Positions 1 through 31,541 of a stretch of 64,000 nucleotides of DNA are shown in pieces. Within the stretch, counting starts at the first letter, position 1, and each line of letters opens with the position of its first letter. The notes under the pieces were generated by a model. The model made no database searches. It saw only the letters and a list, made by a program, of their open reading frames with translations, and had not been told where the DNA came from. The position numbers and the translations under genes are program-made. The stretch is from a virus, in the IMG/VR virus record IMGVR_UViG_3300029250_000344; one strand, given 5' to 3'.

Positions 1-1341
1 CTATAAATTGAAATCTATGTTTATTTTATCGTGGGTTATGGTTATCTGTTTAATAGCCTCGTGCAACACTTCGCGCTGTTCTTCGGGAGCCATAGTATCC
101 CAACGGTCACGAATGTTACCAACCTTCTCTACAAGCCGACGTCTTTTTGTCTCCTCCTTTTCTCTATCTTCTTCGTTGACGATTTTGTCTGCTATACGAA
201 CCAGTTGTTGCTTAGATTCTTCAATGGCTTCTATTAAATAATCGTCACCTCCATCACCATACAATCCATAAAGCCTCCTAATTTTTTGCTCTAAGGTTTT
301 CTTCTGTTGTACAAGTTCATCGAGAACGTTGGTCTTAATGTCGTAAGCCTCGGCTTTATTAAACCGACTGGTGTTCTGGAAAAATATAGTCAGCACGGCG
401 TTCTCTATGTCTTGGACGTTGTGGGACTCATTGTCGCAGTTCGGGTCTTTAACCAAATACGCTTTACTTTTTTGACGCGAATAGCAGTATATATGTCCGC
501 CTTGATAACGCATCTTTGCACCGCACACCCCACACACCAACAAGCCTGTCAATAGATAGACATTGTTCCGTGGGGTAGGAGCTGCCGACCGCTTCTTCAT
601 ACAAGCCATGGCACGTTCATAGGTCTCGAGGGATATTATTGGTTCGTGTTTACCCTGATACTCCACTCCGTTATACACAATCACGCCAGTGTTGGTTTTG
701 CGGGCTAAAATCTGCTCGGCCAGCCTGTCGTATTTCATGCCCAGTATGCGCTGTATCTCGTATGTTGAGCAACCCCCTATGTACAAATCATAGATTTTGC
801 GCACAGTCTCAGCGTCTTTATTTGGCACCAGCGTCTTAAGCTTGGGATCATAATCGTACCCAAACGGTGTCCTGCCGCCTCCAGGCCAATATCCTTCACG
901 TACACGACCTAACATACCTGCCTTTGTGCGCTCTTTGATATTCTCACGCTCAAGTTGTGCAAACACAGATAAGATGCCTATCATGGCGCGACCAAATGGG
1001 GTCGCAGTATCAAAGCTTTCACTAATAGACACAAAATCTACATTGTGTGGCAGGAATACCTCCTCAATAAGATAGAGCGTGTCCTTTTGGCTGCGGCTTA
1101 AACGGTCAAGTTTGAACACAACTACCCGCTCAACTTCCCCGCACTTACAATCTTCTATAAGGCGCGTCATTGCAGGACGATTGAGATTGCTGCCGGTATA
1201 TCCACCATCTACATAATGTTCAAAAGATTTATATCCTTTCAGCTTACAGTATGCTTCTAACCGCTCGCCTTGAATGTCGATGCTGTAGCCTTCTTCGGCT
1301 TGTGCATCGGTAGATACTCGTGCGTATAGCGCAGTAACCAT
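1..1341 (-). CDS. large serine recombinase / integrase, C-terminus truncated by window edge
   Basis: N-terminal resolvase-type catalytic domain (YARVSTDAQ..., Ser/Arg motifs), recombinase domain and Cys-rich zinc-ribbon region. The ORF runs off position 1. Confidence 0.8.
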   Translation of the reverse strand: MVTALYARVSTDAQAEEGYSIDIQGERLEAYCKLKGYKSFEHYVDGGYTGSNLNRPAMTRLIEDCKCGEVERVVVFKLDRLSRSQKDTLYLIEEVFLPHNVDFVSISESFDTATPFGRAMIGILSVFAQLERENIKERTKAGMLGRVREGYWPGGGRTPFGYDYDPKLKTLVPNKDAETVRKIYDLYIGGCSTYEIQRILGMKYDRLAEQILARKTNTGVIVYNGVEYQGKHEPIISLETYERAMACMKKRSAAPTPRNNVYLLTGLLVCGVCGAKMRYQGGHIYCYSRQKSKAYLVKDPNCDNESHNVQDIENAVLTIFFQNTSRFNKAEAYDIKTNVLDELVQQKKTLEQKIRRLYGLYGDGGDDYLIEAIEESKQQLVRIADKIVNEEDREKEETKRRRLVEKVGNIRDRWDTMAPEEQREVLHEAIKQITITHDKINIDFNL

Positions 1342-3680: not shown

Positions 3681-4115
3681 TTAATTTTCGCCTGTACTAC
3701 CGAATCCACCGCGATTAGCGTTGCCTAAATCATCTACGGATTCAAACGTTATATTGCCGAACTCATGCCGCATAGTTTTGTTTATGCGGAACTGGCAAAT
3801 GCGTGTGCCATCTGGGATAAACGTGTCACGCAGAGCATACACGGGGAATCTCCACACGTCATCATTGCCGCGATAGCTGCTGTCAATCACTCCGTAATGG
3901 TTGGTCTGTATTACGCCCCATTTAGCAAAGGTTGAGCTGCGAGGCACGACATTGGCCTCGTACCCATCAGGCAATGCCATGGCAAAGCCGAGAGGTATGA
4001 GAGCAGACTCACCAGACTTAAGTCGAGTGTCGCCACAGGCATAACAGTCAATCCACTCTCCTTCTGCAATCATCTTTAGCTCAGGAGAGCCACAATATTT
4101 AATCTTGATGTTCAT
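3681..4115 (-). CDS. dut: dUTP diphosphatase
   Basis: GVIDSSYRGND motif and overall dUTPase-like layout in 144 aa. Confidence 0.75.
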   Translation of the reverse strand: MNIKIKYCGSPELKMIAEGEWIDCYACGDTRLKSGESALIPLGFAMALPDGYEANVVPRSSTFAKWGVIQTNHYGVIDSSYRGNDDVWRFPVYALRDTFIPDGTRICQFRINKTMRHEFGNITFESVDDLGNANRGGFGSTGEN

Positions 4116-4668
4116 TCAGACTCCTTATCTCATCTAAAGTTCTTGGTGTGTAGTCCATCCACGGCATCATAGCCCCAACGTTATACATATGGCATGGTAT
4201 CCCGTATAGCTCTTGCATCAAGTAGCGGTTGTGCTCCATCATGTTGTACTCGAAGGAGCTATGAACATGACCATACAAGTGATACCAACCGTAGTAATGG
4301 TTTTTGAAGCACGGGATGGGGTAGTGGCAAAGCACTACCTTTCTCCCCGCGTCTTCGACTTCTAAGTATTCAGTCACCTTAACGAATTTTTTGAGAAACC
4401 GCCCGTCGCCACAACGGTCGTGGTTCCCTTTGATTAAGAAGATATTGCCATTTAATTGCTCGAGGACGGCGATAGCTTCTTGCATATTGCACCAGAACAT
4501 ATCTCCCAGCATATATACTATGTCGCTTGCGCCCACAGCTGAGTTCCAACGCTCAATAAGTGTCGCGTTCATTGCTTCAACCGTTTTGAATGGGCGATTA
4601 TCAAACGCTAATATGTTTTGATGCCCGTAGTGCCAGTCGGAGATGTATAGCTTTCTGTTATCAGGCAT
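4099..4668 (-). CDS. calcineurin-like metallophosphoesterase
   Basis: DWHYGH, GDMF, GNHD motifs. Confidence 0.7.
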   Translation of the reverse strand: MPDNRKLYISDWHYGHQNILAFDNRPFKTVEAMNATLIERWNSAVGASDIVYMLGDMFWCNMQEAIAVLEQLNGNIFLIKGNHDRCGDGRFLKKFVKVTEYLEVEDAGRKVVLCHYPIPCFKNHYYGWYHLYGHVHSSFEYNMMEHNRYLMQELYGIPCHMYNVGAMMPWMDYTPRTLDEIRSLNEHQD

Positions 4669-4677
4669 ACTGTACCC

Positions 4678-6912
4678 TTAGCTACATTTGCTCCAGCCAC
4701 ACTGCTTGCAAACAATGCATCCACCTTCATGCACAACTTCTTTGGCTCCGCAACTTGGGCACGCACCACCCTCAGATGTAGCAACAACAGGGGTTTCCTG
4801 CACCGCATCTTCTTCGTTAGCGCTCTGTTTCAGTTCGTCAAGAATCTGCTGTAACATATACGCTATTGCGCTGGGGCAAGAGCGTCCCTTGCTAACCTCT
4901 ATGCCTTTGCCGCGTGCATACTGATAGCTTGGGCAACTGCCAGCTTTCTGTAGCTGTTCAATTATATATTCTATTGGCACTCCTCCGCGCAATGCGGCAG
5001 ACATGAGACGGCTATTAGCTTGCGTTGACACTACACAACCACCAACGCCATCCGTGTTTGTGAAGAAGTCGTATATCTTACCTTCATCCTCGTCTATACC
5101 GACAAATAGATAAAGTTTGCCACACCCAGTCTTTAACTTATATTTACGATAGGTTAAACCTTCGGGTACATCCTCTATCATGCCACGTTGCAGCTCTTCA
5201 CAAACACGTGGGTCATCGCCATGGTGCGCCTCATTACTGTCAACCAGTATACCTTCACGCTCACACCCAGCACGATAGATGGTTAAACCTTTCAGTCCTG
5301 CCTTCCATGCTTCCATATAGATATTCATCACATCATCTATAGTGGTTTCGTATGGCAAGTTGATAGTGGAGCTAATAGATGCGTCTATATGGCTCTGCCA
5401 AATCGACTGCATAGCTATGCGGTCTATATAGTCAATATCCTTGGCGGTGACGAAATAAGATGGTAATTCAGCCTCATCTTTGAGATTGTGCATTTCCATA
5501 TACTTCTGGACTATAGGAGTATACACCTTATACGTTACTTCCTTGTTATGCAAGCTTTCTGTACGGCGCGTATATGAATTGGCGAAGATAGGTTCTATGC
5601 CGCCACTAATACCAAGCATTGTGCTAAGAGTCCCAGTTGGTGCAATAGTCAGAAGCTGTGAGTTCTTCATACTAATAGGTGTGCGCTTACTATAACGACA
5701 ATTATACTTAAAGAACCCTGTATCCTTATAATTATCAGGGGATAATACGTCAATCTCCTTTGTAGCAGTCATGGAAGCATCTATTGCTGTGTCGGCAAGA
5801 TGAATTCCTATCTCATCACACAGTTCTATTGCAGCGCTTGAGCCGTATTCGACACCCATCATAATTAGCATGTCTGCTAACCCCATTATGCCAAGTCCTA
5901 TCTGACGCCACTTGCGTACGCTATTTCTTTGTTCTTTGAGAGGGTGCAGTGGCATACCTTCATCCAGCACGTCATTCAAGGCATTTACAGCCCTTTCCAC
6001 CGTATTGATGAATGACTGATAATCGAATGAAGCAAAGGGTGTAAATGGTTTTTCGACGAAAGCCGCAAGATTAATGCTGCCAAGCAAACACGAGCCCCCC
6101 TCCGGCAACGGCTCTTCAGCGCATGGATTTACGCCAGCAAACTCAAATTCAGGTGTGTTCGCAAGTAGATTCCACGTCTTTATTCTATCCCAAAACAATA
6201 TACCCGGCTCGGCGGTACGCCAGTTCATTTCAGCTATCTTACGAAATACATCACGAGCATTGACCGTCTTGCTAATGGTTTCGCCTGTCTCAGGACGTGT
6301 ATATGACAGTGTGTAAGGCAAATTGAGTTCTACGGCTACCATAAAGTCATCGGTGATTCGTACAGATATATTTGCCTTAGTGACACGAGATAAATCTGAT
6401 TTGACTTCGATAAATTCTTCGAGGTCGGGGTGGTCACAAGGCATTGAAATCATCAAAGCCCCGCGCCGGCCACATTGCCCTATCAGCCCTGTTACCATGG
6501 AATACAAATCCATAAACGATACAGCACCAGATGTTTCTTTAGCAGTGTTATGAATCTTAGCTCCGCGTGGGGCAAGTTTGCCGAGGTCGATGCCGCACCC
6601 TCCACCATAGCTGAATGTCCGTGCTAACTTGGAAGCACATTCAAAAATAGATTCTATTGAATCTTCGGGCGGCGCAATAACGTAACAGTTAGAATATGTA
6701 ACCTTCTCGCCGTTCTTGTTGAGTCCTCTGTTAGCAAGGATTCTACCGCCAAATAGGAATTTTTTCTCCTTGATGAGAGTTTTAACCGACTCGTCTCCCC
6801 CGCTAACGCGGTCAAGCCATTCGTCAAATGATTCGTTACCGTTCTGGTATTTTTTATGCCATATGTCAATACCAATCTGATTGTCTGCGCCAAGCCATTC
6901 TTCTACTTTCAT
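4678..6912 (-). CDS. nrdJ: ribonucleotide reductase large subunit, probably class II (B12-dependent)
   Basis: NPCAEEPL...GSCLLGSINL active-site region. No ATP cone. C-terminal CxxC...CxxC zinc ribbon. No beta-subunit gene nearby. The ATG at 6912 overlaps the stop of the upstream kinase gene (ATGA); the track ORF extends to 6957. Confidence 0.75.
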   Translation of the reverse strand: MKVEEWLGADNQIGIDIWHKKYQNGNESFDEWLDRVSGGDESVKTLIKEKKFLFGGRILANRGLNKNGEKVTYSNCYVIAPPEDSIESIFECASKLARTFSYGGGCGIDLGKLAPRGAKIHNTAKETSGAVSFMDLYSMVTGLIGQCGRRGALMISMPCDHPDLEEFIEVKSDLSRVTKANISVRITDDFMVAVELNLPYTLSYTRPETGETISKTVNARDVFRKIAEMNWRTAEPGILFWDRIKTWNLLANTPEFEFAGVNPCAEEPLPEGGSCLLGSINLAAFVEKPFTPFASFDYQSFINTVERAVNALNDVLDEGMPLHPLKEQRNSVRKWRQIGLGIMGLADMLIMMGVEYGSSAAIELCDEIGIHLADTAIDASMTATKEIDVLSPDNYKDTGFFKYNCRYSKRTPISMKNSQLLTIAPTGTLSTMLGISGGIEPIFANSYTRRTESLHNKEVTYKVYTPIVQKYMEMHNLKDEAELPSYFVTAKDIDYIDRIAMQSIWQSHIDASISSTINLPYETTIDDVMNIYMEAWKAGLKGLTIYRAGCEREGILVDSNEAHHGDDPRVCEELQRGMIEDVPEGLTYRKYKLKTGCGKLYLFVGIDEDEGKIYDFFTNTDGVGGCVVSTQANSRLMSAALRGGVPIEYIIEQLQKAGSCPSYQYARGKGIEVSKGRSCPSAIAYMLQQILDELKQSANEEDAVQETPVVATSEGGACPSCGAKEVVHEGGCIVCKQCGWSKCS

Positions 6913-7481
6913 TTGCCACGACCTTTCTTGTTTTCTGTGTTCTGTATATATTCCCATATCTCATCAACCGTAGTTACAATCGCATCGTTCCAAATCGTTG
7001 TATCTGTAAGATTCGCGACTTCTGCAAACGCCTTACGGTCGTGCGATATGCGGGCTTCAATCTGTTCGGGGTCATCGCCTCTATTGGCCATTCTTAAACG
7101 TCGTGTGATGCCCGTAGCCTTTAGATAAATGGCTTTAATCCCCTTCTTGCCGTGATAACGCTCTCTAAACGTTATAAGCCCTGCCGGGTCAATTACGTAC
7201 AAATCCGCGTTATCCGCCTGAGACTGCGTACACCAGTACATATTGCCGTCAAATACGGTTTCTGCGACGATATCAGGGTACTGGTGGTGTATTTGGTCAA
7301 ACGTCAGGCCGGACACGAATATATGGCCGTTCTCGCCCTCAAATCGAGGCTCACGCGTGGTATAACTGCGTAGTTCGGTCAGGCCGTATTGCTTGCACAA
7401 CTCCTCTACAACACGGGATTTGCCAGCCCCCGATTCCCCGACAATGCAATAGATGTTTTTCATGCGCGAGGCTCTCCGCAA
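6909..7481 (-). CDS. guanylate-kinase-like nucleoside monophosphate kinase
   Basis: GESGAGKS P-loop and TTREPR motif. Confidence 0.65.
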   Translation of the reverse strand: MRRASRMKNIYCIVGESGAGKSRVVEELCKQYGLTELRSYTTREPRFEGENGHIFVSGLTFDQIHHQYPDIVAETVFDGNMYWCTQSQADNADLYVIDPAGLITFRERYHGKKGIKAIYLKATGITRRLRMANRGDDPEQIEARISHDRKAFAEVANLTDTTIWNDAIVTTVDEIWEYIQNTENKKGRGK

Positions 7482-8095
7482 GGGTACGCTTCACGGCACT
7501 CCCCACGCACGCACGGTGCGCCTGCATCCTTAAATAGCTCAGGGGCGGTCTGTTTGCACAGCGCAAGCATCTCGTCTGCCACAGCGCGTATCTCCCACTG
7601 AGCACGATTACAGCAACGCAGTGCAAAAAAGTGCCGCAACTCACGGGCATTCATCGTAACTACCATATTGGTAACAGTTGCTTCGGGCAATACGAATCGT
7701 GCGTCTTCTGCGCCAACACCCATGCCAATAAGAGCGGTATAAGCATTCGCCGCCTGCTGTATCGTTTCTCTGTAAAGTTGGTTGGCACTATCGTTATTGG
7801 TAATGCTGGGCGGTACTACTACATTAACATTGTTCGTGTATTTGCAGTACCGTTGGCTCTCTACAGAGAAACTTGCCAGCCTATGGCGGGTTATCTGTGC
7901 CAGAAATGCTCGACTCACATCCGTTATGCGGAATGTAAATGATACATGCTCCAGCACCGATTCATGCCCGCTCTCTATAGCTACTTCCAGCCCCTTCTTT
8001 GTCGGGCCAGTAGCTCGGCACATACCGGCAGCGATTTGTGCAACCACCACTGGGTCTGGCGTATACGCCAGCAGTTCAACGTGTTTTCCCATCAA
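7460..8095 (-). CDS. thyX: flavin-dependent thymidylate synthase
   Basis: ThyX signature region ITRHRLASFSVESQRY. Confidence 0.85.
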   Translation of the reverse strand: MMGKHVELLAYTPDPVVVAQIAAGMCRATGPTKKGLEVAIESGHESVLEHVSFTFRITDVSRAFLAQITRHRLASFSVESQRYCKYTNNVNVVVPPSITNNDSANQLYRETIQQAANAYTALIGMGVGAEDARFVLPEATVTNMVVTMNARELRHFFALRCCNRAQWEIRAVADEMLALCKQTAPELFKDAGAPCVRGECREAYPCGEPRA

Positions 8096-8298
8096 ACTTC
8101 ACTCCAATCTATAAAATTAAATCCATAAAAATCTTTAGCACAGGCTTCACTGCAAAATACAGCACCCTCGTCTGTTGTTACAGCACAGTCCTCATCTCGA
8201 TAGATAGGACAACCGCAATGGTCGCACCACGCATAGACTTCACGCTTATGATTTGGGCAACGCGGCGGGCATTTCACTCGTTCACATATTTCACACAT
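8092..8298 (-). CDS. Cys-rich small protein
   Basis: 68 aa, Cys-rich (about 10 Cys); likely metal-binding. Confidence 0.4.
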   Translation of the reverse strand: MCEICERVKCPPRCPNHKREVYAWCDHCGCPIYRDEDCAVTTDEGAVFCSEACAKDFYGFNFIDWSEV

Positions 8299-8653
8299 AT
8301 TTATTTTTGTTTAATTTTTTGAGCAAATACAGATAGTCACTTTGTGATATAAGCTGTATGTCGGATATGATTATATCACACTCTGCGTCAAATGTGTTGT
8401 CTATGGCAGCCATCGCTTGCTCCAACGGAAACGTCGGGCTTGTACCGGACACGCAGCCGATAGTCTTGCGCGCATAACCTGTGCGCGGCACCCGTACATC
8501 ATACGTAAAATACCAATAATGTATATCACCTTCCTCTATGTGGTCAACTTTGAATGCATTAGGTGTTCTACCCAAACAAATAGTACATACAGGCTCTCCT
8601 ATTTCCGTGAAGTCGTCAGCTTCATGACCGCATTTCATAATATAGTGTGTCAT
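8291..8653 (-). CDS. hypothetical protein
   Basis: ORF in operon orientation. Confidence 0.4.
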   Translation of the reverse strand: MTHYIMKCGHEADDFTEIGEPVCTICLGRTPNAFKVDHIEEGDIHYWYFTYDVRVPRTGYARKTIGCVSGTSPTFPLEQAMAAIDNTFDAECDIIISDIQLISQSDYLYLLKKLNKNKYV

Positions 8654-8713
8654 CAGTTTTCCGTTGCGGATACCCCTTGCTTTAGCTACGGGGCAACGAA
8701 CCTCCTTTCATAT

Positions 8714-10009
8714 TTATGCTATTAAAAAATTCCGACTACGTTCCAGTAATTTCAAATGCTTATAGTTTACGCCATCCTTAACCTTTGTTCCATCAAGCTG
8801 CCGTAACAAAAAAGAACCACTGGTTCGCCTCCCCCAAACAAAACACACAATGCCATTGTATAACACTTTGTCGTAGAGGCGGTATCCAAAGACATACCTC
8901 TCTGCTTGATTGGACTTGCGGATTCCTCCCTTGAGAACAGTCGCCTTGTGGAGCTGCCGATTGTGGTGTCTCACTGGGCGAATCGTATAAACCTTATTGA
9001 CTTGCACGATCCCCGGAAGATGGCTGACATTGAAGCCATGCTTGCCTTGTGCGATTGCCAGAGCGTCATTGGTGTGGCTCTTGGGGAGCACTAACAACTT
9101 CTCTCGGGTAGCCTTTGTAATGTAGCCTTTCGTTTCGACAACGGGGATGTGCAACTCAGAGCAGAATCTTTGAACCAGTGTTGCCCGCATGACTCCCATG
9201 AACGTAGCATCTCTGGTTGGCCTTCGCTTGCGCTTCTTGAGGTCTTTCTCCGTAATCAACCCGCCGTGATGCTTTTTGTGACAACTTTCGCAAAGAGTGA
9301 TGAGGTTGCCGGGAGCGTCGCCGCCATATTTTCGGCTTTCCAGATGATGAACATGGAGCCGAACTTCATTCTTCTTTGTTGGCTGAACCCCGCAGCACTG
9401 GCAAGCATAGCCATCCCTCCAAAGTACGTACTGACGCACATTGTAGTGACCGTACATCTCTCCCTGCTGGTAGTCCTCTCCCTGTGGGACAGATTTCCCT
9501 TCTTCAATGGTTTTCAGCAGTTGCAAGTCGAACTCAGCAGTTTCTACGACCACCTTGCTCACCGGCAGGATGCGGCAAACCATCTTGATGGCGGTAATAT
9601 GCTCTTGGATTTTCACCTCCACAGAAGGCGCTAACCACCCTTTATGCTTACTGCGAACTCTGTTATTGAAACGTGGTTTACGGTAGCGGTTTTTTCGGTT
9701 TCTCCGAGCCTTGCGGAATTCACGACGAGTTGACATCAATTCCACCACGTCATTGCGCGGCTTTACTTCTGCTGAGAACAACTCCTCTTTTGTAGTGGAC
9801 GCGGACACTCCAATAGTCTTACTCCCAGCGTCCACTCCCAGAATAACCTTTTGAGTGTAACCGCTACTCCCGTAGATTAACTGGATGGTAAAAGGCGTCC
9901 TTTTCTTCACTTTGGCTTTCCCTTCATCCAGCAGATGGCGGGCTTTCGCCGGGGAGCAGGGCATCAGCGGACGCCCGTGCTTGTTAAGGACATATACTTT
10001 ATTTTGCAT
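8714..10009 (-). CDS. iscB: IscB RNA-guided nuclease
   Basis: N-terminal PLMP motif (GRPLMPCSPAKARHLL). RuvC-I GVDAGSKTIGVS. Arg-rich bridge REFRKARRNRKNRYRKPR. RuvC-II ETAEFD. HNH CQCCG...HVHHL...LCESCH. RuvC-III HTNDALA. Confidence 0.85.
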   Translation of the reverse strand: MQNKVYVLNKHGRPLMPCSPAKARHLLDEGKAKVKKRTPFTIQLIYGSSGYTQKVILGVDAGSKTIGVSASTTKEELFSAEVKPRNDVVELMSTRREFRKARRNRKNRYRKPRFNNRVRSKHKGWLAPSVEVKIQEHITAIKMVCRILPVSKVVVETAEFDLQLLKTIEEGKSVPQGEDYQQGEMYGHYNVRQYVLWRDGYACQCCGVQPTKKNEVRLHVHHLESRKYGGDAPGNLITLCESCHKKHHGGLITEKDLKKRKRRPTRDATFMGVMRATLVQRFCSELHIPVVETKGYITKATREKLLVLPKSHTNDALAIAQGKHGFNVSHLPGIVQVNKVYTIRPVRHHNRQLHKATVLKGGIRKSNQAERYVFGYRLYDKVLYNGIVCFVWGRRTSGSFLLRQLDGTKVKDGVNYKHLKLLERSRNFLIA

Positions 10010-10297
10010 GACACCAACCTCCCTCTTTTTTTTTGATTGTGACTAAAATAAAAAGCCACGCGGCCTTTCAGCCGTCAGGTATCCGTCCCCAATGTTATCT
10101 CAAGGTTTTTGTGTGCAACACTGCTCCTTACCCTCAGAACTGTTTAATCACACACCGCAGTGCGGCAGGTTCGGATTCACGCCCGCCGGTGCCTATACAT
10201 ACATTCTTGAGTAACGTAGTGCTCGAAGCACTCAGGGTAGTCAGTCTGAGCTTACGATTTCTCGCAAGCCCCGGCTTTAGCCGTGGGCTACTGACTT
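10010..10297 (-). ncRNA. candidate IscB omegaRNA
   Basis: ORF-free leader immediately 5' of iscB. Conserved blocks (TCCCCAATGT, TAACGTAGTGC, AGGGTAGTCA) and a compensatory-substituted hairpin are shared with the leader of the second iscB copy. Confidence 0.5.
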
Positions 10298-11451
10298 GAT
10301 GCAGTCAGACCACGAATGATGCTGTCTATCTCATGCGCGACTGATATGAAATCTGCCTGCCGAAATCCCTTAGTAGTCATAGCGGCGGTGCCAATTCGCA
10401 CGCCAGAGGTCTGCATAGGACTGCGAGATTCGTTCGGTACGCTGTTTTTATTGAGCGTGATGGAGTATTTGTCTAATGCGTCCTGAACGGCCTTGCCAGT
10501 CAGATTTGGGTGTGTACGTGTAAAATCGAGAAGGAACATGTGGTTGTCTGTACCGCCTGTCACCACTTCGTAGCCCATACGTGTGAATTCATTTGCCATA
10601 GCTTTGGCGTTTGCCTTGACTTGACAGATATAACTGATAAAATCAGGCTTTAAGGCTTCTTCAGCAGTTACAGCTTTTGCCGCTATAGTGTGCATATGTG
10701 GACCACCAGCCAAGCCGGGGAACAGCGCACTATCTACCTTCTTAGCGTATTCAGGTTTGCAGAAGATAAGAGCAGACCTTATGCCGCGTAACGTTTTATG
10801 AGTAGTAGTCGTTACAATATCGGCATAACCAAACGGAGATGGATGCTCTCCCGCCGCTACAAGTCCAGCTATATGGGCGATGTCTGCAAGTAGCAGTGCG
10901 TCATTGGCGTGCGCAATCTCAGCAAAACGCTCAAAGTCAATGACACGGCTATATGCAGATGCGCCAGCCACGATGAGCTTAGGCTTAAACGCCTTAGTCG
11001 TCGCTTCGACGTGTGCCATGTCTATATATCCATTGATATCAAGGCAATAGTGGCGAATATTGTACAATTTGCCAACCTGACTGACGGCAGCACCGTGTGA
11101 AAGATGCCCACCCATATTCAAGTCCAAACTAAGTATGATGTCGTTGGGTTTTAGCACCGTTGCATATGCTACCAAATTAGCGTGCGTACCGCTAAGTGGC
11201 TGAACGTTTACATGATAATCTGTATGGAATACTTCCTGCCACTTCTGTTGGCAGTATAGTTCAAGCTCGTCTACAATATCGCAGCCACCATAGTAGCGTT
11301 TGCCCGGATAGCCCTCGGCATATTTATTGGTTAAGCAACTTCCAGCCGCCTTTAGCACGTTTGCGGATACAAAATTTTCTGATGCTATCAGCTCTATGGT
11401 TGAATCTTGGCGGTTTGCTTCCTTTTGTATCAGTTCAAATACTTTACTCAT
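10288..11451 (-). CDS. glyA: serine hydroxymethyltransferase
   Basis: ELIASENF N-terminal motif and PLP-lysine region THKTLRG. 387 aa. The last codons and the stop lie inside IS-derived sequence. Confidence 0.85.
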   Translation of the reverse strand: MSKVFELIQKEANRQDSTIELIASENFVSANVLKAAGSCLTNKYAEGYPGKRYYGGCDIVDELELYCQQKWQEVFHTDYHVNVQPLSGTHANLVAYATVLKPNDIILSLDLNMGGHLSHGAAVSQVGKLYNIRHYCLDINGYIDMAHVEATTKAFKPKLIVAGASAYSRVIDFERFAEIAHANDALLLADIAHIAGLVAAGEHPSPFGYADIVTTTTHKTLRGIRSALIFCKPEYAKKVDSALFPGLAGGPHMHTIAAKAVTAEEALKPDFISYICQVKANAKAMANEFTRMGYEVVTGGTDNHMFLLDFTRTHPNLTGKAVQDALDKYSITLNKNSVPNESRSPMQTSGVRIGTAAMTTKGFRQADFISVAHEIDSIIRGLTASSQ

Positions 11452-11717
11452 TATACCTCTAACAAAAAATCATCCTCAGAATACAAGAGCTTAATAACCT
11501 CGTCCAAGGTGCAAACATCAGAATGGCTTATTAGCTCTGCTAAGGTGTCGGCATCTTCTACATCAACATCGTTTCTGCTTACGCCTCCTCGTTTCCAAAA
11601 AGAAGCTATCGTTTTGTAATCCAATATAAAATGCACTCCTCGCCCCGACACCCAACCACAGCAATCATCCCATGGGATGTTGAGGTCTAATTTGTTGTTT
11701 AGTGTATATTTAATCAA
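11451..11717 (-). CDS. hypothetical protein
   Basis: ORF. Confidence 0.4.
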   Translation of the reverse strand: MIKYTLNNKLDLNIPWDDCCGWVSGRGVHFILDYKTIASFWKRGGVSRNDVDVEDADTLAELISHSDVCTLDEVIKLLYSEDDFLLEV

Positions 11718-11781
11718 TGTTTATCCTCCTTCGGTTTAATTCCGCATACAGGATCTTCGGTATCCATATGCTCATCCGTAA

Positions 11782-11904
11782 ATATGCATCCGGTCTGCTT
11801 GCTTAAGAAGCTGTGCCAATGTGCTGTCGGCAGGGGCTTCAACTGCGGAGTTATTGTCGTAACCATTAAATATAAATTTAATTGTTTTTGCCATACCTAT
11901 TCTC
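11782..11904 (-). CDS. small ORF (40 aa)
   Basis: Below the track cutoff. Preceded by the RBS AAAAGGAGAATAGG. Confidence 0.3.
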
Positions 11905-11944
11905 CTTTTTATAATATTCTGGGATCAATTCTAAGCACGTGTTG

Positions 11945-12994
11945 TCAGTAATCAAATGCACCACTATTTGATATTAAGTGCATAATAACAGCAACTGTCC
12001 AGCCATTACCAAGACATTTATAAGCCTGCGAGTCGCTTATGACACTCATATCATACCAATCGGGGACAGTTTGCAGTCGTTTACACTCGTTGACGGATAG
12101 CTTACGGACAATGTAAAGGCCATCAGCCAGCCCGATAGGATACCAACTGCCATCAATCAGGATGTGTCTATTAAACACCCTGTATACTATTTTTGCTCTT
12201 ACGTCGCTATCTATCGGCACAGCATATAGTCCCGTCTTCGCTCCCACACCACCTCCTTGACCGCATAGCGTCGTTGCTTTACCTTCAGAAGAATATACGC
12301 GGTACTGCTTACTATCAAACGCTACATTTTTAGCGTTATTCTTAATGGTTCCTATACGTATGGGCTCGGCTACCATGCTATGCCTATGCTTGGTTAGCGT
12401 GTCCTTTACTATAGCCCCTGAGATTCTTGTTGTTAGTGCGTAACTCTTTTCTGTCCACACAGCACCACTATCAATCACGTCTTGCAAACGCCCCCCCCTA
12501 TCGGCAGGTGGAGCTATACCAGCACGAATATATGAGCCATTCGGATTCCGCCTACCCACCCAATACAACCTGCGTCTATTTTGTGCGGATACCAATGCAG
12601 AATTGATCTCTACCGCCTCAAATCCAAACGCTTCATCAATAGCAGCTCGTATGGCCTTACTCATACTCTGGTTGTTCTCGTATAAGAAGTATTTGGGTTT
12701 TGCCTCTTTTACAGCCCGTACATATTGACTAAATAGTTCCCAGCCCATACCACTATTCGGTTGTGTCTCTCGGTTATTCTTCTGGGCTATTGACCAATGT
12801 GTACACGGACTACCGCCAATAAGCCAATCTATATTTTGGTATTGAGTGAAATCAGCAGTAAACACGTCACCACGTTGTTCTGTATTGGGGAAATTGTGTT
12901 GTGTTACTTGAATTGCGTATTTGTCTATTTCGTAAGAGATATAGCGATCTACATCTATGCCAAGTTCTTTGAAAGCTATTTGACCACAACTCAT
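11945..12994 (-). CDS. DNA (cytosine-5)-methyltransferase
   Basis: PC motif GGSPCTHWS and ENN motif. Motif I (LSLFDGMSCG) straddles the ATG, so the real start is probably a non-AUG codon near 13021-13027. Confidence 0.8.
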   Translation of the reverse strand: MSCGQIAFKELGIDVDRYISYEIDKYAIQVTQHNFPNTEQRGDVFTADFTQYQNIDWLIGGSPCTHWSIAQKNNRETQPNSGMGWELFSQYVRAVKEAKPKYFLYENNQSMSKAIRAAIDEAFGFEAVEINSALVSAQNRRRLYWVGRRNPNGSYIRAGIAPPADRGGRLQDVIDSGAVWTEKSYALTTRISGAIVKDTLTKHRHSMVAEPIRIGTIKNNAKNVAFDSKQYRVYSSEGKATTLCGQGGGVGAKTGLYAVPIDSDVRAKIVYRVFNRHILIDGSWYPIGLADGLYIVRKLSVNECKRLQTVPDWYDMSVISDSQAYKCLGNGWTVAVIMHLISNSGAFDY

Positions 12995-13044
12995 GCCGTC
13001 AAATAAACTTAAAACTGATATGCCTATATTTAATTCACCTTACT

Positions 13045-13767
13045 TTATTTGTATTTTATGAAATTTTCGCCATATAGTTTGTTGAGTTCATCAAAGACGT
13101 GCCCCATACCTAAGCCTTCCGAATTAGGCTTCCAAATACCGTCAGCATCATACGCTCCCCCGTTAATGCAATATTTGTATTGAACGGGGTGTGTCTCTTT
13201 AAGGCGTTGGAAGCGGGTAGGAGCTTTGTCGGAGTGACAACCAAACCCACAAAACACACAGCCGGTGCGCGATACTCCTGTCGTATACAGACGCCCTGAC
13301 TCATCTTCCTTAATGTCGCCGTACACAGAGCAGTATGGTACATTGAACTCGCGCAAGTATTGCAAAATATCTTGTTCCGTCACGCCCTGACAACGCTTAT
13401 CGCCGTCCATTTTGTATGGCAGGCGCTTCTTCGTAGTGGCAAACAGGCAATGCTCTGTCAACCCACGGTAATACTGACCAAGACCTACTTTGTCTTTCAT
13501 CCATGTGATTGTGGTGATATATTCAAATCCCCACGCCTTGATACATTCAAACGCTGCTGGTAGATAGTTGTTAGTAGCCCATAAATACAAATGGCATCCT
13601 TCAGGATCAGCCAGTTCGCCTACGGGCAATGCCATAATCTCTTTGACCGACATCAATGGATAATGGCGGTCTGCCCCGCGTTTAATTTTGCCACCCCCTT
13701 GTTCGGGCCAAGGGGGATCAGCGTAGATAGTTTTATATTTATTTTTAGGAAAATTGATTTTTAACAC
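13045..13767 (-). CDS. DNA amino-methyltransferase, DPPW/MT-A70-like family
   Basis: IYADPPWPE motif near the N-terminus. Confidence 0.7.
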   Translation of the reverse strand: MLKINFPKNKYKTIYADPPWPEQGGGKIKRGADRHYPLMSVKEIMALPVGELADPEGCHLYLWATNNYLPAAFECIKAWGFEYITTITWMKDKVGLGQYYRGLTEHCLFATTKKRLPYKMDGDKRCQGVTEQDILQYLREFNVPYCSVYGDIKEDESGRLYTTGVSRTGCVFCGFGCHSDKAPTRFQRLKETHPVQYKYCINGGAYDADGIWKPNSEGLGMGHVFDELNKLYGENFIKYK

Positions 13768-16700
13768 CTCTCATAGTCTTGCAGATACCAATATCCACGA
13801 TTGTCTTTAACTAAAGAACTTGCATACAGTATATCGCCCCGCTTAAATGGGGTGCTGTTATATACCTTGCTACGCACCGTCACCACGGCGTTTTTACCAG
13901 AGCCAACCGACTTGATACCAACCTTATACGCCCATATACTTCCAGAATCTTTACTTTTTAAGGGCGTAAGGTCGGTGATGAATACCTTGCGTCTGTCCTC
14001 TTCTTTGCCGGTTGTAAGGTTGACACACCCCAACAATTCAAGTTGCGTCTTGGCCCGCTCCTGCAATGTCATATCAGGCAAATCTAACGCCCTGATATGC
14101 GCTTCGCAAGCCCTAATCAGCCCCATACAATCCGCAATAGTCCAATTCTTTAGGGGTTGCCCCTTGGCATTTACATCGGTGGCAAATCGTGGCAACAATG
14201 CGGATAAGTCTTCTGCTTGATCCTTGCGCATGGTTTTCGCAGTTCCGCCTTTCAAGCGTCTGAACGCTTCGTTAATCTGGAGCAATGTTGCTGGGTTCCC
14301 GAACTCGGAGAAAAATTCAACTCGTATTAAGATATCAAGCTGCCGCGAGTCTACGGATGTGTGCTGGTTTATCGCATACAATAAATCGGTGAAAGTGTCA
14401 AACGTGTGTGTGTGAGCCAGTTGGTATAACTCATCGGTTATCTGCTTATTCATATACTTAATTGATGTTACACCTTTAGCAATAATGCGCTTGTCTGCGT
14501 CTGCAACATATACATTCTTAGATACACCGAACTTAGGAGGAGTAATGTTAATACCGTACTCTTGTGCTAAGGTACTGCCGTTAACTGTATCCTCCTCATT
14601 CTTGGCATTATTCAAATATGCGGTTATAAACTCATATGGGTGATAGTAGCGGAGATATGCACACATATACCCTATCAGACAATAACCGATTGAATGATTA
14701 TATCCAAACTGATACGACGCACTATCTTCAATAATCTGCAAAAATTCTTTTGCTTCCTGTTCAGCAATCTCTCGCGGCTGCGACGATTTGGCACAATAAC
14801 CCTCCAGAATACGCGGCAAGGCAGCTTGCAGTCTATCCTCTTGTTTTCGACCAATCGCCCTGCGCACATTGTCGGCTTCGCTACCCGACAACCCACATAT
14901 TTGTTGCAGAAACTTTATCGTATCCTCTTGGTAAACCAAGAAATTCAAATTGTTCTTCAGCAACTCATCTATAATTGGTGACGGGTTCGCGTGCGTCTTA
15001 CGCGCCAACAGGTCATTACGATAGGATGCCCCTGACGGTCTGATGGCTGCCGTTACCAACGACATCTCGAAGATCGATGTAGGCTTGAACTGTCGCAACG
15101 CCTGAAACGCAAATGCCGACTCCATTTGGAAAATGCCAACAGGGGAACGCAGCATATCCTTCCACACGGCTTGGTCATCCCAGTCTATCTCGCATGTACG
15201 CGGATACGGCCGGTCAAGCAACCTGTATGTGTCGCGTAATATCTGCACGTTGGCGAGTCCTAACAGGTCGTACTTGACCAAATTGACTTCGTGTACGGCC
15301 TCCATGTCTATTTGTAACACAATCTTGCCTTCGCGTCGCAGCGTACCATACCCATCAGGCAATGTGACGGGGCTAACTATAACGCCAGCCGGATGCATTG
15401 ATTGAGACACAGCGGTGTTAAGAAGCCCATCATAATAATAAAACAGCTCTGGATAAGCTTGCCTTGCCTTATTCTCGTCCGCTTCAAACTCACGTTTAAT
15501 TTTATCTATACAGGCGAGTGTATATGGGTTTGTACCCCTGTTTTTATTTTCGTCCCATCGCAAACTAAGCGCACGCCCTATTTCGTCTATTGTGCCTTTA
15601 GAGCTAATTGTGCCTATGGCGAGGATGTAAGATGTATAATCGCTACCGAATTGGTCGAATATATGTTGATACACACGCTCTCGGCTGTCTGGCGGTAAAT
15701 CAAGGTCAACATCACCCAATTCCTTACGGTCTTCATTACAGAAGCGAGAGAAGACTGTGTGCCACTGTTCGGGGTTCAGGTCTGTGATATCCAACACATA
15801 AGCAACTCGCGAACCACCGACTGAGCCGCGCGAAGGGCCAAGAGGTATGTCGTGGGATTTACACCACCGCACCAACTCTCCTACGAAAAGCATATAGCCC
15901 TTCATATCAACCTTATCAAAGACTCGCCCTTCTTCTTCAATCGCCTCACGGAATGCTTGTGCCTGCTCAGCGGGGATGATACCGCTCTGGACCTTAGCCT
16001 CAAAACACTGTTGTACTTGCTTGTCATATTCTTCCGCATCACGCTGGTGTGACCCGTACAAAATAGGGTATTTGAATGCTGTATCCAGTGTAAAATCCTC
16101 CACCATATCTGCCATAGCATTGGTATTGGATATAGCTTCCGCTATGAGGTTGTCCGGCAATGCTTCTTGCCGCCTAAATATATCCCATAGTTCATCATAT
16201 GTTTTATAAGTTAAATCAAAAGCATCTTCACCGGTGTAAGCGATGTGTTTAGCCTTTTGCAGAATGCTGCGACATTCAGCCTTGTACTTATTGATGCTGT
16301 GGGTATCTGTACCGGCGATGAGCGGCTTGTGATACTGGTGCGACAACTGTGCCAAGTGCTGATTATATAGTACCTGATCCGCACATAGATGAGGCTGGAC
16401 TTCATAATAATCATAGGTACGAGCAAGCTTGTCATACCACGCATTGTCAAGCTGAAGCTTATTAAGCGGCGACGCCAGACACGCACTTATTTTAATAATG
16501 TTTGGGGAGATGCGCACAAACTCATCAAAGCTAATGCGGGGCTTGTAATAGAAGTGATCTTCTTCATACGACCTGCTTACAAGGGAATTTAGTTCCAATA
16601 CACCGTCATAGTTCTTCGCTATCAATACCGTATGGTAATTATCACGCACTTTGTCGCGCGGGTTTTCGGTCAGATAACACTCTACGCCGTGCAGGTACTT

Positions 16701-21311: not shown

Positions 21312-21387
21312 TGGAGCCATCTGTGGGACTCGAACCCACAACCTTCGCCTTACGAAAGCGTCGCTCTACCGATTGGGCTAAGATGGC
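21312..21387 (-). tRNA. tRNA-Thr (anticodon CGU), CCA encoded
   Basis: 7-bp acceptor stem, GTTCGAGTC T-arm, A14/G18G19/A21 D-loop. The anticodon stem has one mismatch. Confidence 0.6.
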
Positions 21388-21567
21388 CTGATGAATGGAA
21401 GCTTCCCCCGAAGGGAGGTTTACCAACCCAGATGCATCTTAGGGTTTCCTTTACAAACTCGAAAGTCTTACCTGTCAAACCAAGTTTAATACCGTGACTC
21501 TTTATTTAGGGTGTACCCCTCGGGGTGAGGGACGGATACAAGACGATTTCCCCGAGCTGGAGCCGAC

Positions 21568-21641
21568 AGGCGGACTCGAACCGCCACTACCTGCTTACAA
21601 GACAGGGCTTCTGCCATTGAATTATGTCGGCTTGGCCCTAT
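21568..21641 (-). tRNA. tRNA-Thr (anticodon UGU), CCA encoded
   Basis: Perfect acceptor and T stems. Anticodon loop CTTGTAA. Confidence 0.65.
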
Positions 21642-21673
21642 ATGATATAGGGCCTTTTCGAAAGGAGGCTTAA

Positions 21674-21721
21674 GCCAGTGGTGGGAGTTGCACCCACATA
21701 TCGACACTAAATTACACTGGC
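21674..21721 (-). other. tRNA-like minihelix (acceptor-type 7-bp stem enclosing a T-arm-like hairpin)
   Basis: GCCAGTG ... GTGGG-TGCAACT-CCCAC ... CACTGGC on the minus strand, with no D or anticodon arms. Confidence 0.3.
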
Positions 21722-21836
21722 ATGATGAGCAACCTTTCTGCCGTAGTGTGCCAAAGTCTTACTCCGGCCACGGCCGTCTCCGTAGCTGCTCGGGACGCAT
21801 AAACTCGTCTACGTGGGCATCCATGGAATGCCAAAT

Positions 21837-21921
21837 TGGTGCCGAGAGCGGGATTTGAACCCGCAAGCTTTTCGCCGGCGGATTTTAAGTCCGCTGTGTA
21901 TGCCTATTCCACCATCTCGGC
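21837..21921 (-). tRNA. tRNA-Leu (anticodon UAA), type II with long variable arm, CCA encoded
   Basis: Acceptor GCCGAGA/TCTCGGC. T-arm GCGGGTTCAAATCCCGC. Anticodon stem GCGGA/TCCGC with loop CTTAAAA. Confidence 0.8.
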
Positions 21922-29186: not shown

Positions 29187-29514
29187 CCCCTCCCTTGTAT
29201 TTCGGCATCTCGGCCCAATTTGTCACTTCACACTCTTCACACAAAGCATGACAAAACCATGTTCCTTTGGGGGTTAAAAAACATTCACGCGAAGTAGGGA
29301 ACGGATCTTGACTTGGTATATGTCCTATCACTGACACATACTCCGGGGGTGGGTTACTTGGGGCGTCGTGCCAAGTTACGACCTGTTTACTAAGCTCCTC
29401 TATGACATCGGCAGCTTCCGCACATATATCACGTTTTCGAAGACTGACGCTATTTGTGTGCGATATTTCTCGCAAGCTCTTTATAAGTTCCTCTTTGTTC
29501 ATTAAGTGGGGCAA
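29170..29514 (-). CDS. hypothetical protein (TTG start)
   Basis: ORF. Confidence 0.4.
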   Translation of the reverse strand: MPHLMNKEELIKSLREISHTNSVSLRKRDICAEAADVIEELSKQVVTWHDAPSNPPPEYVSVIGHIPSQDPFPTSRECFLTPKGTWFCHALCEECEVTNWAEMPKYKGGDVGNG

Positions 29515-29637
29515 GGATACCCATAACTTTAGTCATGGGAGGAATTGCCCTTTTACTTCCTTTCTGTAATGTAATTCGTTGAAGCTTCTAATAGTCGCAG
29601 CTTTCTGTAGGACGCACTGTTAGAAACAACAGTGCCA

Positions 29638-30805
29638 TCAAACTTTTTTTAGAGCAAAATATCCTGATATGCGTCTGCCTGTGATAAAGCATTCTGTACC
29701 GTTATAGGATACTTTGTCCCAAAGGCGATAGCCTTTTACGATGTACGGTGCTTGATTAGCTTTGCGTATGCCGCCTTTCAGGATGGTTGCTTTATGCAAC
29801 TGCCTGTTATGGTGACGTACTGCTTTTGTGTAGTAGCAAGTACCACAAGGTATAGCCAATAGATTTTTACTAATGCATCGTGCATCATTGGTGTGGCTTT
29901 TAGAGATGCTGTTCTTTTCGCGTAAATACTTTGTTATGTAGCCGTAAGTCTCTTGCACAGGGATCTTTAGATTTTTGTGCAGGCGTTCCATAAGTGTCTT
30001 GCGCATAATGCCCATAAAGGCTGCATCTTGGAGAGGCTTTCCTCTCTTTTTGCCGTCAAGTGTTACCTTTCCAGCGTGTAGTGCTTTGTGACAAACTGTG
30101 CAAAGCACTACAAGATTGTTGGGTGCATTGCCACCTGTTCTACGGGTCTCGATGTGATGCACATGCAGCTTTATGCCTTTAGTTTTGGTAGAATGCGCTC
30201 CACAGCACTGGCAAGTGTTTTAGTACATACTGGCGTACATTGTACTCATCGTACATTTCACCAATCTGATAGTCTGTGCCAACTGGCATAGGTTTACCTT
30301 CCAGCATTGCTTTCAAACGTTGTGTGTCAAACTCTGCTGTCTCCACTCTGACGAGCGTAATAGGTAAAATGCGACATACGCGCTTAATGAGCGTAATGTG
30401 TTCCTGAATCTTAACCTCTACCGACGGCGCTAACCAGCCCTTATGTTTGCTATGCACCCTGTTGCTAAAACGCGGCGCACGATAGCGTGTTTTACGGTGC
30501 CGTCTGTTGCGTCTGAAAGCACGGCGTGCAGAAAGCAAATCGACCACATCATTGCGTGGAGTTGCTTCTTCACGATAGAGTTCGTACTTTTCAGTCGTAG
30601 CAGATATACCGATATGTTTGCTGCCTGCATCCACACCCAAAGTAACGGGTTGTTTGTATCCTGTACTTCCGTACAGAAGTTTGATTGTAAATGGTGTACG
30701 TTTTACAACGCTCGCCTTATTCTGCTTTAACAATAAGCGAGTCTTGCGTGGAGAACACGGCATCAAGGGTTCGCCGCGCTCGTTAAGTACATACACATAT
30801 TGCAT
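29638..30805 (-). pseudogene. iscB: iscB pseudogene (frameshift/stop in the HNH region)
   Basis: ORFs 30179..30805 and 29638..30162 together align to full-length IscB. About 13 nt are missing between ...VRQYVL and CQCCG, which shifts the frame. PLMP, RuvC-I/II/III and the second half of HNH are retained. Confidence 0.75.
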
Positions 30806-31125
30806 GACGCCATGCCCCTTTCTTAGTGTGACAGCTAATGATAAGCTGTCCTCTCCTCCGAAGAAGAGTTAGAATCCTTCCCCAATGTCATAAGCGGTTT
30901 AATGCAGCCACACCTGTTGTCTTTGCCTCGGATTTCTTTGATGTGTTGCCTTAGAGCGTGCAGTTAGGATTGACGCCACACGGTAACTATCTATTCGCCT
31001 ATAACGTAGTGCAGCATACAGCACGAGGCTATAGCTGAGGGTAGTCAACACACCCTTTCGGGCGCGGCTGAAGTTACAGACTCACGTTTCCACAAGCCCG
31101 CGACTTCAGTCGTGGGTTATTGACT
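30806..31125 (-). ncRNA. candidate omegaRNA, copy 2
   Basis: 5' leader of the iscB pseudogene. Shares conserved blocks and the covarying hairpin with 10010-10297. Confidence 0.45.
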
Positions 31126-31541
31126 TCCTCAAAAGGCTTAACCTCCGGCTCGACATGACCACTGATTGTCATATCATCACGTCTCCGTGGTGTATACACG
31201 CGCTCCTGTTGCTTGTTATATAGTTTTCTGGCATTGCCTTGTATCTGTGTGAGGCGGTTCTTAAATGCTGATTGACTTTGAAGATAAGTGTAAAGCTCGT
31301 TTAGTAGTTCGTTTTCCTCCTTGGCTTTGCGCCGTCGCTGTCGTGCCTCCCGCAATTCCTTATATATAACGTATCCTTCGCGAGCATTCTTGGGTTTACC
31401 GAGTTCGATTTCATGCAGCAAGTCGTTTATTTCCCCGTTTACCTGCTCCAACTCGGTCTCATTGGCACGATACGCTGACGCCACACTGTCATATATCTGC
31501 GTGATGGTTGTAGCATACCTGTCAACGATATTAGAACTCAT
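31074..31541 (-). CDS. hypothetical protein; C-terminal codons lie in the IS end
   Basis: ORF. Confidence 0.4.
   Translation of the reverse strand: MSSNIVDRYATTITQIYDSVASAYRANETELEQVNGEINDLLHEIELGKPKNAREGYVIYKELREARQRRRKAKEENELLNELYTYLQSQSAFKNRLTQIQGNARKLYNKQQERVYTPRRRDDMTISGHVEPEVKPFEEVNNPRLKSRACGNVSL

Follow-up and report, generated by a model that had tools for sequence, protein, structure and literature searches.

An IscB-omegaRNA insertion sequence at the 3' end of glyA in an SPbeta-like prophage

The IMG/VR virus record IMGVR_UViG_3300029250_000344 was analysed as one stretch of 64,000 nt, referred to here as the window. On its minus strand, between glyA and orf120, lies an insertion sequence (IS), a copy of a known selfish mobile element, that carries iscB, the gene of a small RNA-guided endonuclease of the kind ancestral to Cas9, preceded by a leader with a predicted omegaRNA (Table 1). 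The open reading frame (ORF) at 8714-10009 reads as a full-length IscB with all RuvC and HNH catalytic motifs. The NCBIfam profile NF040563 (guided_IscB), an equivalog model for 'RNA-guided endonuclease IscB' with a curated cutoff of 175 bits, matches its product at 342.6 bits, with residues 5-319 aligned to profile positions 1-312 of 314. In Pfam, RRXRR matches residues 5-183 (E = 2.6e-60) and HNH matches residues 203-248 (E = 4.4e-7); the HNH domain is placed between RuvC-II and RuvC-III, with the zinc-binding cysteines and the catalytic histidine complete. The best matches in the PDB are IscB chains (OgeuIscB-type 7XHT, 7UTN and others; E ~1e-37) with the catalytic motifs aligned. The RuvC motifs stand opposite GIDPG, VVLEL and KDHYLDA of the OgeuIscB-type chains, where the aligned motif residues are those we take to be the catalytic residues of OgeuIscB. 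The PDB alignments end at residue 358, and residues 359-431 are conserved in two related copies of the element, L008 and L009, in which tblastn covers residues 1-431. The parts of an intact iscB that an initial annotation of this DNA had recognised, namely PLMP, RuvC-I, RuvC-II and RuvC-III, the bridge helix and HNH, were all located. The possibility it had raised of an HNH/RuvC nuclease of another family is not borne out, given an NF040563 score about twice the cutoff and IscB chains as the best PDB matches.

The leader between the iscB ATG and the glyA stop (10010-10287) is 278 nt long, the length given in the initial annotation, which had placed a candidate omegaRNA here and proposed a covariance-model search. 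The search was strongly positive. The Rfam model HEARO (RF02033), which describes what is today called the omegaRNA of IscB (Meers et al. bioRxiv 10.1101/2023.03.14.532601; PMC13565253), matches over its full length at 122 bits against a gathering threshold of 83 (E = 3.8e-26), and this is the only match above the threshold across the 64 kb. The match is on the strand of iscB and its 3' end lies 64 nt before the ATG. By these measures the leader is a full-length HEARO/omegaRNA, with a score far beyond chance. Seven independent insertions were aligned over the leader: the one in the window, two from IMG/VR viral contigs, three from Dysosmobacter segnis and one other Oscillospiraceae copy. The structure is kept across these homologous elements, with RNAalifold predicting 85 pairs, 14 of them with compensatory double changes; in a sample of only seven related sequences such covariation is supportive and is not statistical proof. 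Among these 14 are pairs of the outer stem, in which the first six bases take part; the window has GUCAGU/ACUGAC there, and most other copies have GUCAAU/AUUGAC. The RNA appears to continue past the Rfam model, which is without downstream elements (Meers et al. bioRxiv 10.1101/2023.03.14.532601), into two further hairpins that are conserved and covarying (alignment A5, columns 304-307/345-348 and 350-355/365-370). These hairpins score as terminator-like sites, the first (GGCUGAAAGGCC) among them.

The predicted guide lies directly 5' of the scaffold start, and its length of 16 nt is an assumption taken from published IscB work. The sequence upstream of the scaffold is unrelated in all seven aligned insertions. 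Within the window the guide has a single exact match, its own site, where it is followed by the scaffold (GTCAGT) and not by a transposon-adjacent motif (TAM); the resident copy should therefore be immune. Because the guide is glyA coding sequence, transcription of the omegaRNA must start inside glyA or before it. A scan for sigma-70-like promoters upstream of the guide on the minus strand found none, with non-canonical promoters still possible, and processing from the operon transcript or from glyA read-through would for this reason be the likeliest source of the RNA.

The ends of the element were defined, as had been suggested initially, by comparison with copies in other genomes. BLAST homology to two independent copies starts at 10296 for L008 and at 10287 for L009 and together spans 10296..8663, and the seven-way alignment starts abruptly at GTCA (10295) in all seven sequences. 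In a sister prophage (L091 and L096), homology to the window stops at 10296 and resumes exactly at 8653. Hairpins with TTTA loops in the IS200/IS605 style, already noted in the initial annotation, were located at both the right end (RE) and the left end (LE). The RE hairpin is also the first omegaRNA hairpin and lies within the HEARO alignment; it recurs in L008, L009 and a further copy, L115, and a different hairpin occupies the same place in the D. segnis copies. The LE hairpin resembles it, the two sharing CC..GCTAAAGC..GGGG, and is invariant across the window, L008 and L009. Beyond the conserved LE 10-mer the linker differs from copy to copy (AAATTTTTG in L008, GACAATTCG in L009), and a conserved motif comes next in all three: the hexamers adjacent to the LE are ATGACA in the window, ATGAAA in L008 and AAGAAA in L009. 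A viral family of 64 loci repeats this layout with an analogous hairpin, TATCCTTGCC, a variable linker of ~7-8 nt and an ATGAA consensus, after which conservation ceases. All three hexamers fit NWRRNA, given as the TAM of OgeuIscB (PMC12660989). From the layout of motif and linker and from the NWRRNA fit, the LE end was placed at 8654 and positions 8653-8648 were assigned as the candidate TAM, in agreement with the point at which homology to the sister prophage resumes.

The element thus most likely extends over 8654-10295, with the LE boundary and the TAM placed by comparison. The initial annotation had given 8673-10297; the element is indeed there, and that span falls ~19 nt short at the iscB-distal side, which reaches 8654, the other end lying at 10295. 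Neither terminal inverted repeats nor flanking direct repeats (target duplication) were found at the element. On the plus strand the cleavage site is spaced from the hairpin by 19 nt at the LE and by 8 nt at the RE, and IS608-type elements typically show this geometry, with the longer spacing at the LE. In the loci described by Meers et al. (bioRxiv 10.1101/2023.03.14.532601), the transposon RE forms the boundary of the HEARO-like region that precedes iscB; the omegaRNA end is therefore taken as the RE and the plus strand as the TnpA-active strand.

Table 1. Features of the IscB-omegaRNA element, its flanks and related genes (window positions unless residues of IscB are given)
Feature	Position	Strand	Remarks
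Whole IscB/omegaRNA insertion sequence	8654..10295	-	1642 bp; RE at 10295, LE at 8654 (LE placed by comparison)
iscB coding sequence	8714..10009	-	431 aa, ATG start, intact; GGAGG ribosome-binding site 8 nt upstream
PLMP motif	residues 13-17		RPLMP; N-terminal PLMP domain present
RuvC-I	residues 58-63		GVDAGS; catalytic D60
Bridge helix	residues 95-117		RREFRKARRNRKNRYRKPRFNNR; Arg-rich
RuvC-II	residues 155-160		VETAEF; E156
HNH, zinc-binding cysteines	residues 203-206		CQCC (CQCCG 203-207)
HNH, catalytic His motif	residues 219-222		HVHH (HVHHL 219-223)
HNH, third segment	residues 234-244		GNLITLCESCH; N235, CESC 240-243
RuvC-III	residues 311-316		SHTNDA; H312, D315
omegaRNA scaffold	10074..10295	-	Rfam HEARO RF02033, model positions 1-211/211
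Two extra 3' omegaRNA hairpins past the Rfam model	10040..10073	-	GGCUGAAAGGCC and GUGGCU..AGUCAC
Predicted 16-nt guide	10296..10311	-	GGUCUGACUGCAUCAA; beyond the element boundary, within the glyA coding sequence at its 3' end
RE subterminal hairpin	10269..10287	-	CCCACGGCTAAAGCCGGGG / CCCACGGCUAAAGCCGGGG; TAAA loop (TTTA on plus strand)
LE subterminal hairpin	8693-8673	-	CCCCGTAGCTAAAGCAAGGGG / CCCCGUAGCUAAAGCAAGGGG; imperfect, TAAA loop (TTTA on plus strand)
Conserved LE 10-mer	8672-8663	-	TATCCGCAAC; invariant in window, L008 and L009
Variable 9-nt linker	8654..8662	-	GGAAAACTG; between conserved LE block and inferred cleavage/insertion point
TAM-like motif	8648..8653	-	ATGACA; flanking; start codon and next codon of orf120
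glyA (serine hydroxymethyltransferase, SHMT)	10288..11451	-	387 aa; end supplied mostly by the element
thyX	7460-8095		neighbour
Second IscB/omegaRNA element	29495-31124	-	decayed, different subfamily; member of the 64-locus family
TnpB	53070-54182	+	370 aa, intact-looking; HTH_OrfB_IS605, OrfB_IS605 and Cas12f1-like TNB domains
Large serine recombinase	1-1341	-	abuts SigG fragment

The insertion is classed as a non-autonomous IS of the IS200/IS605 family (ISC-type), consisting of the omegaRNA gene and iscB only, because no Y1 TnpA was found and ISC elements usually lack one (PMC13565253). A tnpA gene would not fit into the 1642 bp of the element. A search with PF01797 for a Y1 (HUH) TnpA gave no match among 41 of the window's 53 coding-strand frames of 95-230 aa, the remaining 12 having been excluded as overlapping larger genes or looking low in complexity, and an HUH/Y motif screen of all six frames of the window was negative as well, in line with the initial observation that the window has no tnpA. 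A regular-expression screen, a weak test, found no HUH/Y transposase beside 12 related elements. Copies related at 74-86% nucleotide identity and set in unrelated flanks occur in D. segnis (three), L008, L009 (the closest IMG/VR relative) and L115, and related elements are present at 79 IMG/VR loci. The D. segnis copies encode the closest bacterial IscB proteins (82-91% amino acid identity) and have different upstream flanks; they are truncated at three contig ends, as expected for a multi-copy IS. Other Oscillospiraceae IscB copies reach 66-73% identity.

The predicted empty allele or excision junction of the element would read ...CTGCATCAA joined to ATGACACAC. An exact empty site, with the glyA end joined to ATGACA, was found neither in IMG/VR by exact-pattern flank scans nor in JGI metagenomes, and JGI metagenome scans for the hypothetical empty site or the orf120 start gave no match. 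A nucleotide search of the locus against GenBank phages (INPHARED), which do not include the prophage, returned just a 120-nt omegaRNA match. An IMG/VR relative of glyA (L001, 80% amino acid identity) shares only glyA with the window and was set aside as uninformative on the insertion site. Two further observations concern related elements. In L009 the RE hairpin motif ...GGCTAAAGCC...GGG occurs twice upstream of iscB, at 3630 and 3724, 94 nt apart, and the doubling may have been left behind by a tandem insertion or by an earlier one. The viral contig L011 contains a group I intron (Rfam RF00028, 85 bits; 7993-8271, plus strand) ~2.7 kb downstream of its IscB element.

Exact-protein look-ups traced the locus in 17 distinct metagenome contigs, all with the element at this site, from metagenomes that include ERZ19661231 and ERZ28657833, with 99.7-100% identity across the element. 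Of the 15 contigs spanning a run of six A residues at 9695-9700 (codon 105, in the bridge helix), 11 have an intact iscB gene; in the other four, which are independent contigs (L088, L093, L105 and L108), one A is lost and the frameshift divides iscB into ORFs of 125 and 302 aa. The five-A allele is found on two different upstream backgrounds, and is for this reason probably a real circulating allele and not an assembly error. Three base substitutions were seen in iscB, all of them non-synonymous (S242G, F282L and S397G), numbers too small for a selection test. Near-identity (99.7-100%) extends in all carriers over the element and at least 4.6 kb on the thyX side. On the other side a sharp recombination breakpoint lies at ~11403, within the first 50 nt of glyA and 1.1 kb upstream of the element, and none is seen for at least 4.6 kb downstream; there is thus no conversion tract centred on the element. 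The element is also not more conserved than its flanks, as a recent homing event would make it, since it and the downstream flank are equally near-identical. Upstream of the breakpoint, the DNA methyltransferase region (11452-13000) is just 79-86% identical among carriers, and gene content varies, with PAPS reductase, MT-A70 and split or whole C5-methylases.

In the sister prophage, 1054 bp stand in place of 10295..8654 and encode, on the opposite strand, an AcrVA2-like protein. Its gene occupies 3923-4945 on the minus strand of L091, with the same coordinates in L096, overlaps the glyA stop and specifies 340 aa (Pfam PF26125); the protein has no NCBIfam match. The presence of this gene in the same interval of a sister lineage marks the gap between glyA and orf120 as a variable accessory-gene slot. 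The sequence equivalent to the guide target differs in this lineage at 4 of 16 positions, and the TAM equivalent is ATGTAT.

The element overlaps the stop codon of glyA, and the guide is thus inside glyA. The first bases of the element, GTCAGTAG, give most of the last two codons and the stop (...GCA TCA AGT CAG TAG). The element-free sister glyA ends ...GCA CCA AAT GTA TAA, and both GlyA products have 387 aa. The genes nearby encode ribonucleotide reductase, a nucleotide kinase, dUTPase, ThyX, GlyA and a DNA methyltransferase, confirming the initially described position between glyA and thyX in a nucleotide-metabolism operon; the wider context includes a DnaE-type polymerase, a primase-helicase, an RNA ligase and three tRNAs.

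The window holds two other OMEGA-type loci. The second IscB/omegaRNA element is ~86% identical in nucleotide sequence to many IMG/VR loci, and two frameshifts in its iscB (near 30217 and 29648) leave separate ORFs at 30179-30805 and 29638-30162. Its HEARO match at 30868-31124 scores 69.4 bits, below the gathering threshold of 83. The element has the ends GTCAATAACCCACGACTGAAGTCGCGGG... and ...GGGTATCCTTGCCCCACTTA, the latter followed by ATGAAC. As at the intact copy, the ORF upstream (31074-31541) runs into the element at its 3' end. The TnpB gene, the third OMEGA-type nuclease gene of the prophage, sits among Bro-N/ANT antirepressor-like genes.

The window belongs to an SPbeta-like prophage that has integrated into sigG of a spore-forming Firmicute, and its host is probably a member of Oscillospiraceae. 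Immediately beyond the recombinase, outside the window (L169, 11370-21341), come the C-terminal 161 aa of SigG, a sporulation sigma factor (positions 97-257 of 258 in its NCBIfam profile), and then the bacterial genes yabP, yqfD, phoH, ybeY, cdd, era and polA. Since the recombinase abuts the SigG fragment and bacterial genes follow, this is a prophage of at least 75 kb that splits sigG, in the same manner as the skin and SPbeta intervening elements split sporulation genes. At the other edge stand Bro-N/ANT genes and then YonB/D/G/J-type (SPbeta-like) genes. The longest contigs (241.7 and 238.7 kb) are not a jumbo-phage genome, the DNA beyond the integrase being bacterial chromosome. The initial description of the element as carried by a phage is corrected accordingly: the carrier is a prophage in a bacterial chromosome at sigG and not a free phage genome. 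The DnaE-type polymerase has its closest counterparts in large phages of Clostridioides and Bacillus (35-47% identity). A cluster of tRNA genes (Thr-CGT, Thr-TGT and Leu-TAA; 21312-21921, minus strand) lies in the replication module.

The reading that we favour, with a probability of roughly 0.8, is that a non-autonomous OMEGA element has colonised the prophage and is kept by hitch-hiking, possibly with RNA-guided homing. From the anatomy observed here we infer transcription, assembly of a ribonucleoprotein (RNP), cleavage and any homing event along the following lines. The element would have come into the prophage from the IS pool of the host, with TnpA supplied in trans, and would have inserted 3' of a TCAT-type target on the plus strand, at the last codons of glyA. 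Read-through transcripts of glyA would yield the omegaRNA, and IscB together with this RNA would cut DNA that joins GGTCTGACTGCATCAA directly to an NWRRNA-type TAM, which is the element-free version of the site. Such cuttable DNA could be the donor joint after excision, or it could be supplied by a co-resident homologous genome whose allele is empty. Repair of the break by recombination with an occupied copy would bring the element back or spread it, combining peel-and-paste with cut-and-copy homing; TnpA-independent homing of OMEGA elements between co-resident replicons has been described (PMC13565253). The occupied site would be protected, with the TAM displaced by 1.6 kb and the guide match followed by the scaffold. 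For the prophage the element would be a passenger and not a required function, a status suggested by the frameshift alleles, the exclusively non-synonymous changes, the decayed second IscB, the TnpB and the different gene in the sister lineage.

Several points weigh against this reading. The LE boundary and the TAM rest on the comparison of three close and 64 more distant elements, and no precise empty site was recovered in IMG/VR or JGI metagenomes. Vertical inheritance alone would suffice to explain the distribution of carriers, because the element and at least 4.6 kb of flank are near-identical in all of them, and there is no sign that homing has occurred here. Simple insertion into the hypothetical joined site would, moreover, leave glyA without a stop codon of its own, so intervening DNA, for instance the AcrVA2-like gene, was probably deleted or replaced in the history of the locus.

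The initial annotation had considered two functions, the cutting of host or competitor DNA and hitch-hiking. The evidence favours the latter: frameshifted iscB alleles occur, a decayed IscB and a TnpB share the window, and no TAM-flanked target of the guide was found in the window or in IMG/VR. The more elaborate form of the weapon idea, in which the nuclease benefits the phage or practises intronless homing of the T4 Seg type by cutting the glyA/orf120 junction of element-free relatives and excluding or converting their markers, seems quite unlikely to us. It would fit an iscB that is intact in 11 of 15 contigs and an element found at one fixed site, and the concept has been described for OMEGA elements (PMC13565253). 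The sister lineage, too, carries different cargo (the AcrVA2-like gene) exactly between the same breakpoints, and its divergence at four of 16 guide positions, with ATGTAT as TAM equivalent, is what escape would look like. This allele, the sole alternative found, would however escape cleavage, having four mismatches, one of them 4 nt from the TAM, and a non-matching TAM. IMG/VR contains 33 exact 16-mer matches to the guide, about as many as expected by chance and none of them followed by NWRRNA, frameshifted alleles persist in nature, and the tract of identity, with its breakpoint at ~11403 upstream and none for at least 4.6 kb downstream, is not centred on the element. A weapon or marker-exclusion role thus finds no positive support, because no cleavable target was found and broken alleles persist.

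At the opposite extreme the element might be an inactive relic, a fossil that looks intact, with no RNP or no cleavable target and too little time for decay. The missing tnpA of the window, three iscB polymorphisms that are all non-synonymous next to a frameshift allele, a decayed sibling element in the same prophage and the lack of a promoter-like site upstream of the guide all point that way. We nevertheless hold it highly improbable: the catalytic residues and zinc cysteines are all intact, a strong ribosome-binding site precedes iscB, and the omegaRNA scores 39 bits above gathering over the full model, against 69 bits for the decayed copy. Divergence among the copies is too low to separate relaxed from purifying selection. 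There is next to no chance that the ORF is something other than IscB, either a free-standing phage HNH homing endonuclease or a miniature CRISPR-associated Cas9, with an ordinary 5' untranslated region for a leader. Such labels do have a source, as PHROGs names the matching families merely 'HNH endonuclease' and homologs in GenBank phage records are annotated as HNH endonuclease or hypothetical protein. The HEARO match over the full leader, an IscB equivalog score twice the cutoff and IscB chains as the top PDB matches refute both identities. The Cas9d model reaches 12.3 bits against a cutoff of 375, no CRISPR array was found within 5000-14000, and a protein of 431 aa is too small for a REC lobe, so that it does not qualify as a type II CRISPR-Cas9, Cas9d included.

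A bolder reading is that IscB-omegaRNA acts as an RNA-guided gene drive among related SPbeta-like prophages and phages, cutting empty glyA/orf120 junctions in relatives that superinfect or share the cell, copying itself in and displacing accessory cargo such as the anti-CRISPR-like AcrVA2-like gene. This reading is unlikely on present evidence. If it were true, the diverged target and TAM of the AcrVA2-like lineage would be an escape allele, and the locus would exemplify natural RNA-guided 'intronless homing' between viral genomes without TnpA. The value of the locus lies otherwise in a cleanly delimited natural IscB-omegaRNA system, with guide, scaffold, both ends and candidate TAM assigned to the base. 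Its temperate-phage setting and natural variants (intact, frameshifted and replaced by another gene) make it a test case for the effects of OMEGA systems on viral genomes, and a compact IscB of 431 aa with a predicted TAM is a candidate for genome-editing screens. The current understanding of OMEGA systems is left unchanged.

Among known systems, the T-even homing endonucleases SegF, SegB and Mob and the TnpB-driven spread of IS in plasmids resemble the locus in having a nuclease gene between conserved genes that could convert element-free genomes; such conversion of homologous genomes in the same cell has been termed 'transposon non-restorative homing' (PMC13565253). Unlike in the T-even endonucleases, recognition here would be by guide RNA and TAM and not by protein, and no element-centred conversion tracts were found. 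For IscB-type IS200/IS605 elements of Geobacillus stearothermophilus, cleavage of the vacated site and its recombinational restoration have been proposed (Meers et al. 2023, bioRxiv 10.1101/2023.03.14.532601). The element described here shares with them an omegaRNA upstream of iscB that is bounded by the RE and takes its guide from flanking DNA, and differs in that no TnpA partner was found, in being carried by a prophage and in having replaced a functional gene's stop codon. The RNA agrees with HEARO RF02033 in its full-length match and in the expected position and orientation relative to an HNH/RuvC ORF, and differs in running past the model into two more conserved hairpins before the iscB start. 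With OgeuIscB-omegaRNA (PDB 7UTN, 7XHT and 8CSZ) the locus shares the domain order PLMP, RuvC-I, bridge helix, RuvC-II, HNH and RuvC-III, aligned catalytic motifs, and an omegaRNA directly 5' of iscB with the guide at the 5' end of the RNA; its predicted TAM, ATGACA, fits the OgeuIscB motif NWRRNA (PMC12660989). OgeuIscB is longer (496 aa against 431 aa) and distant in sequence, with E ~1e-37 and an alignment in two pieces, and the C-terminal TAM-interaction region falls outside the alignment. Phage homologs of IscB are found in Clostridium phage c-st, Ralstonia phages Adzire and Heva, Staphylococcus phages and cyanophages. PHROG 119 and 2214 are IscB-like families with full-length IscB-like ORFs, and 39 of 50,697 GenBank phage records contain homologs, at no more than 50% identity, annotated as HNH endonuclease or hypothetical protein. 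That phages can carry iscB is thus already known, and the intact element in this prophage is a clean example and no new kind of system.

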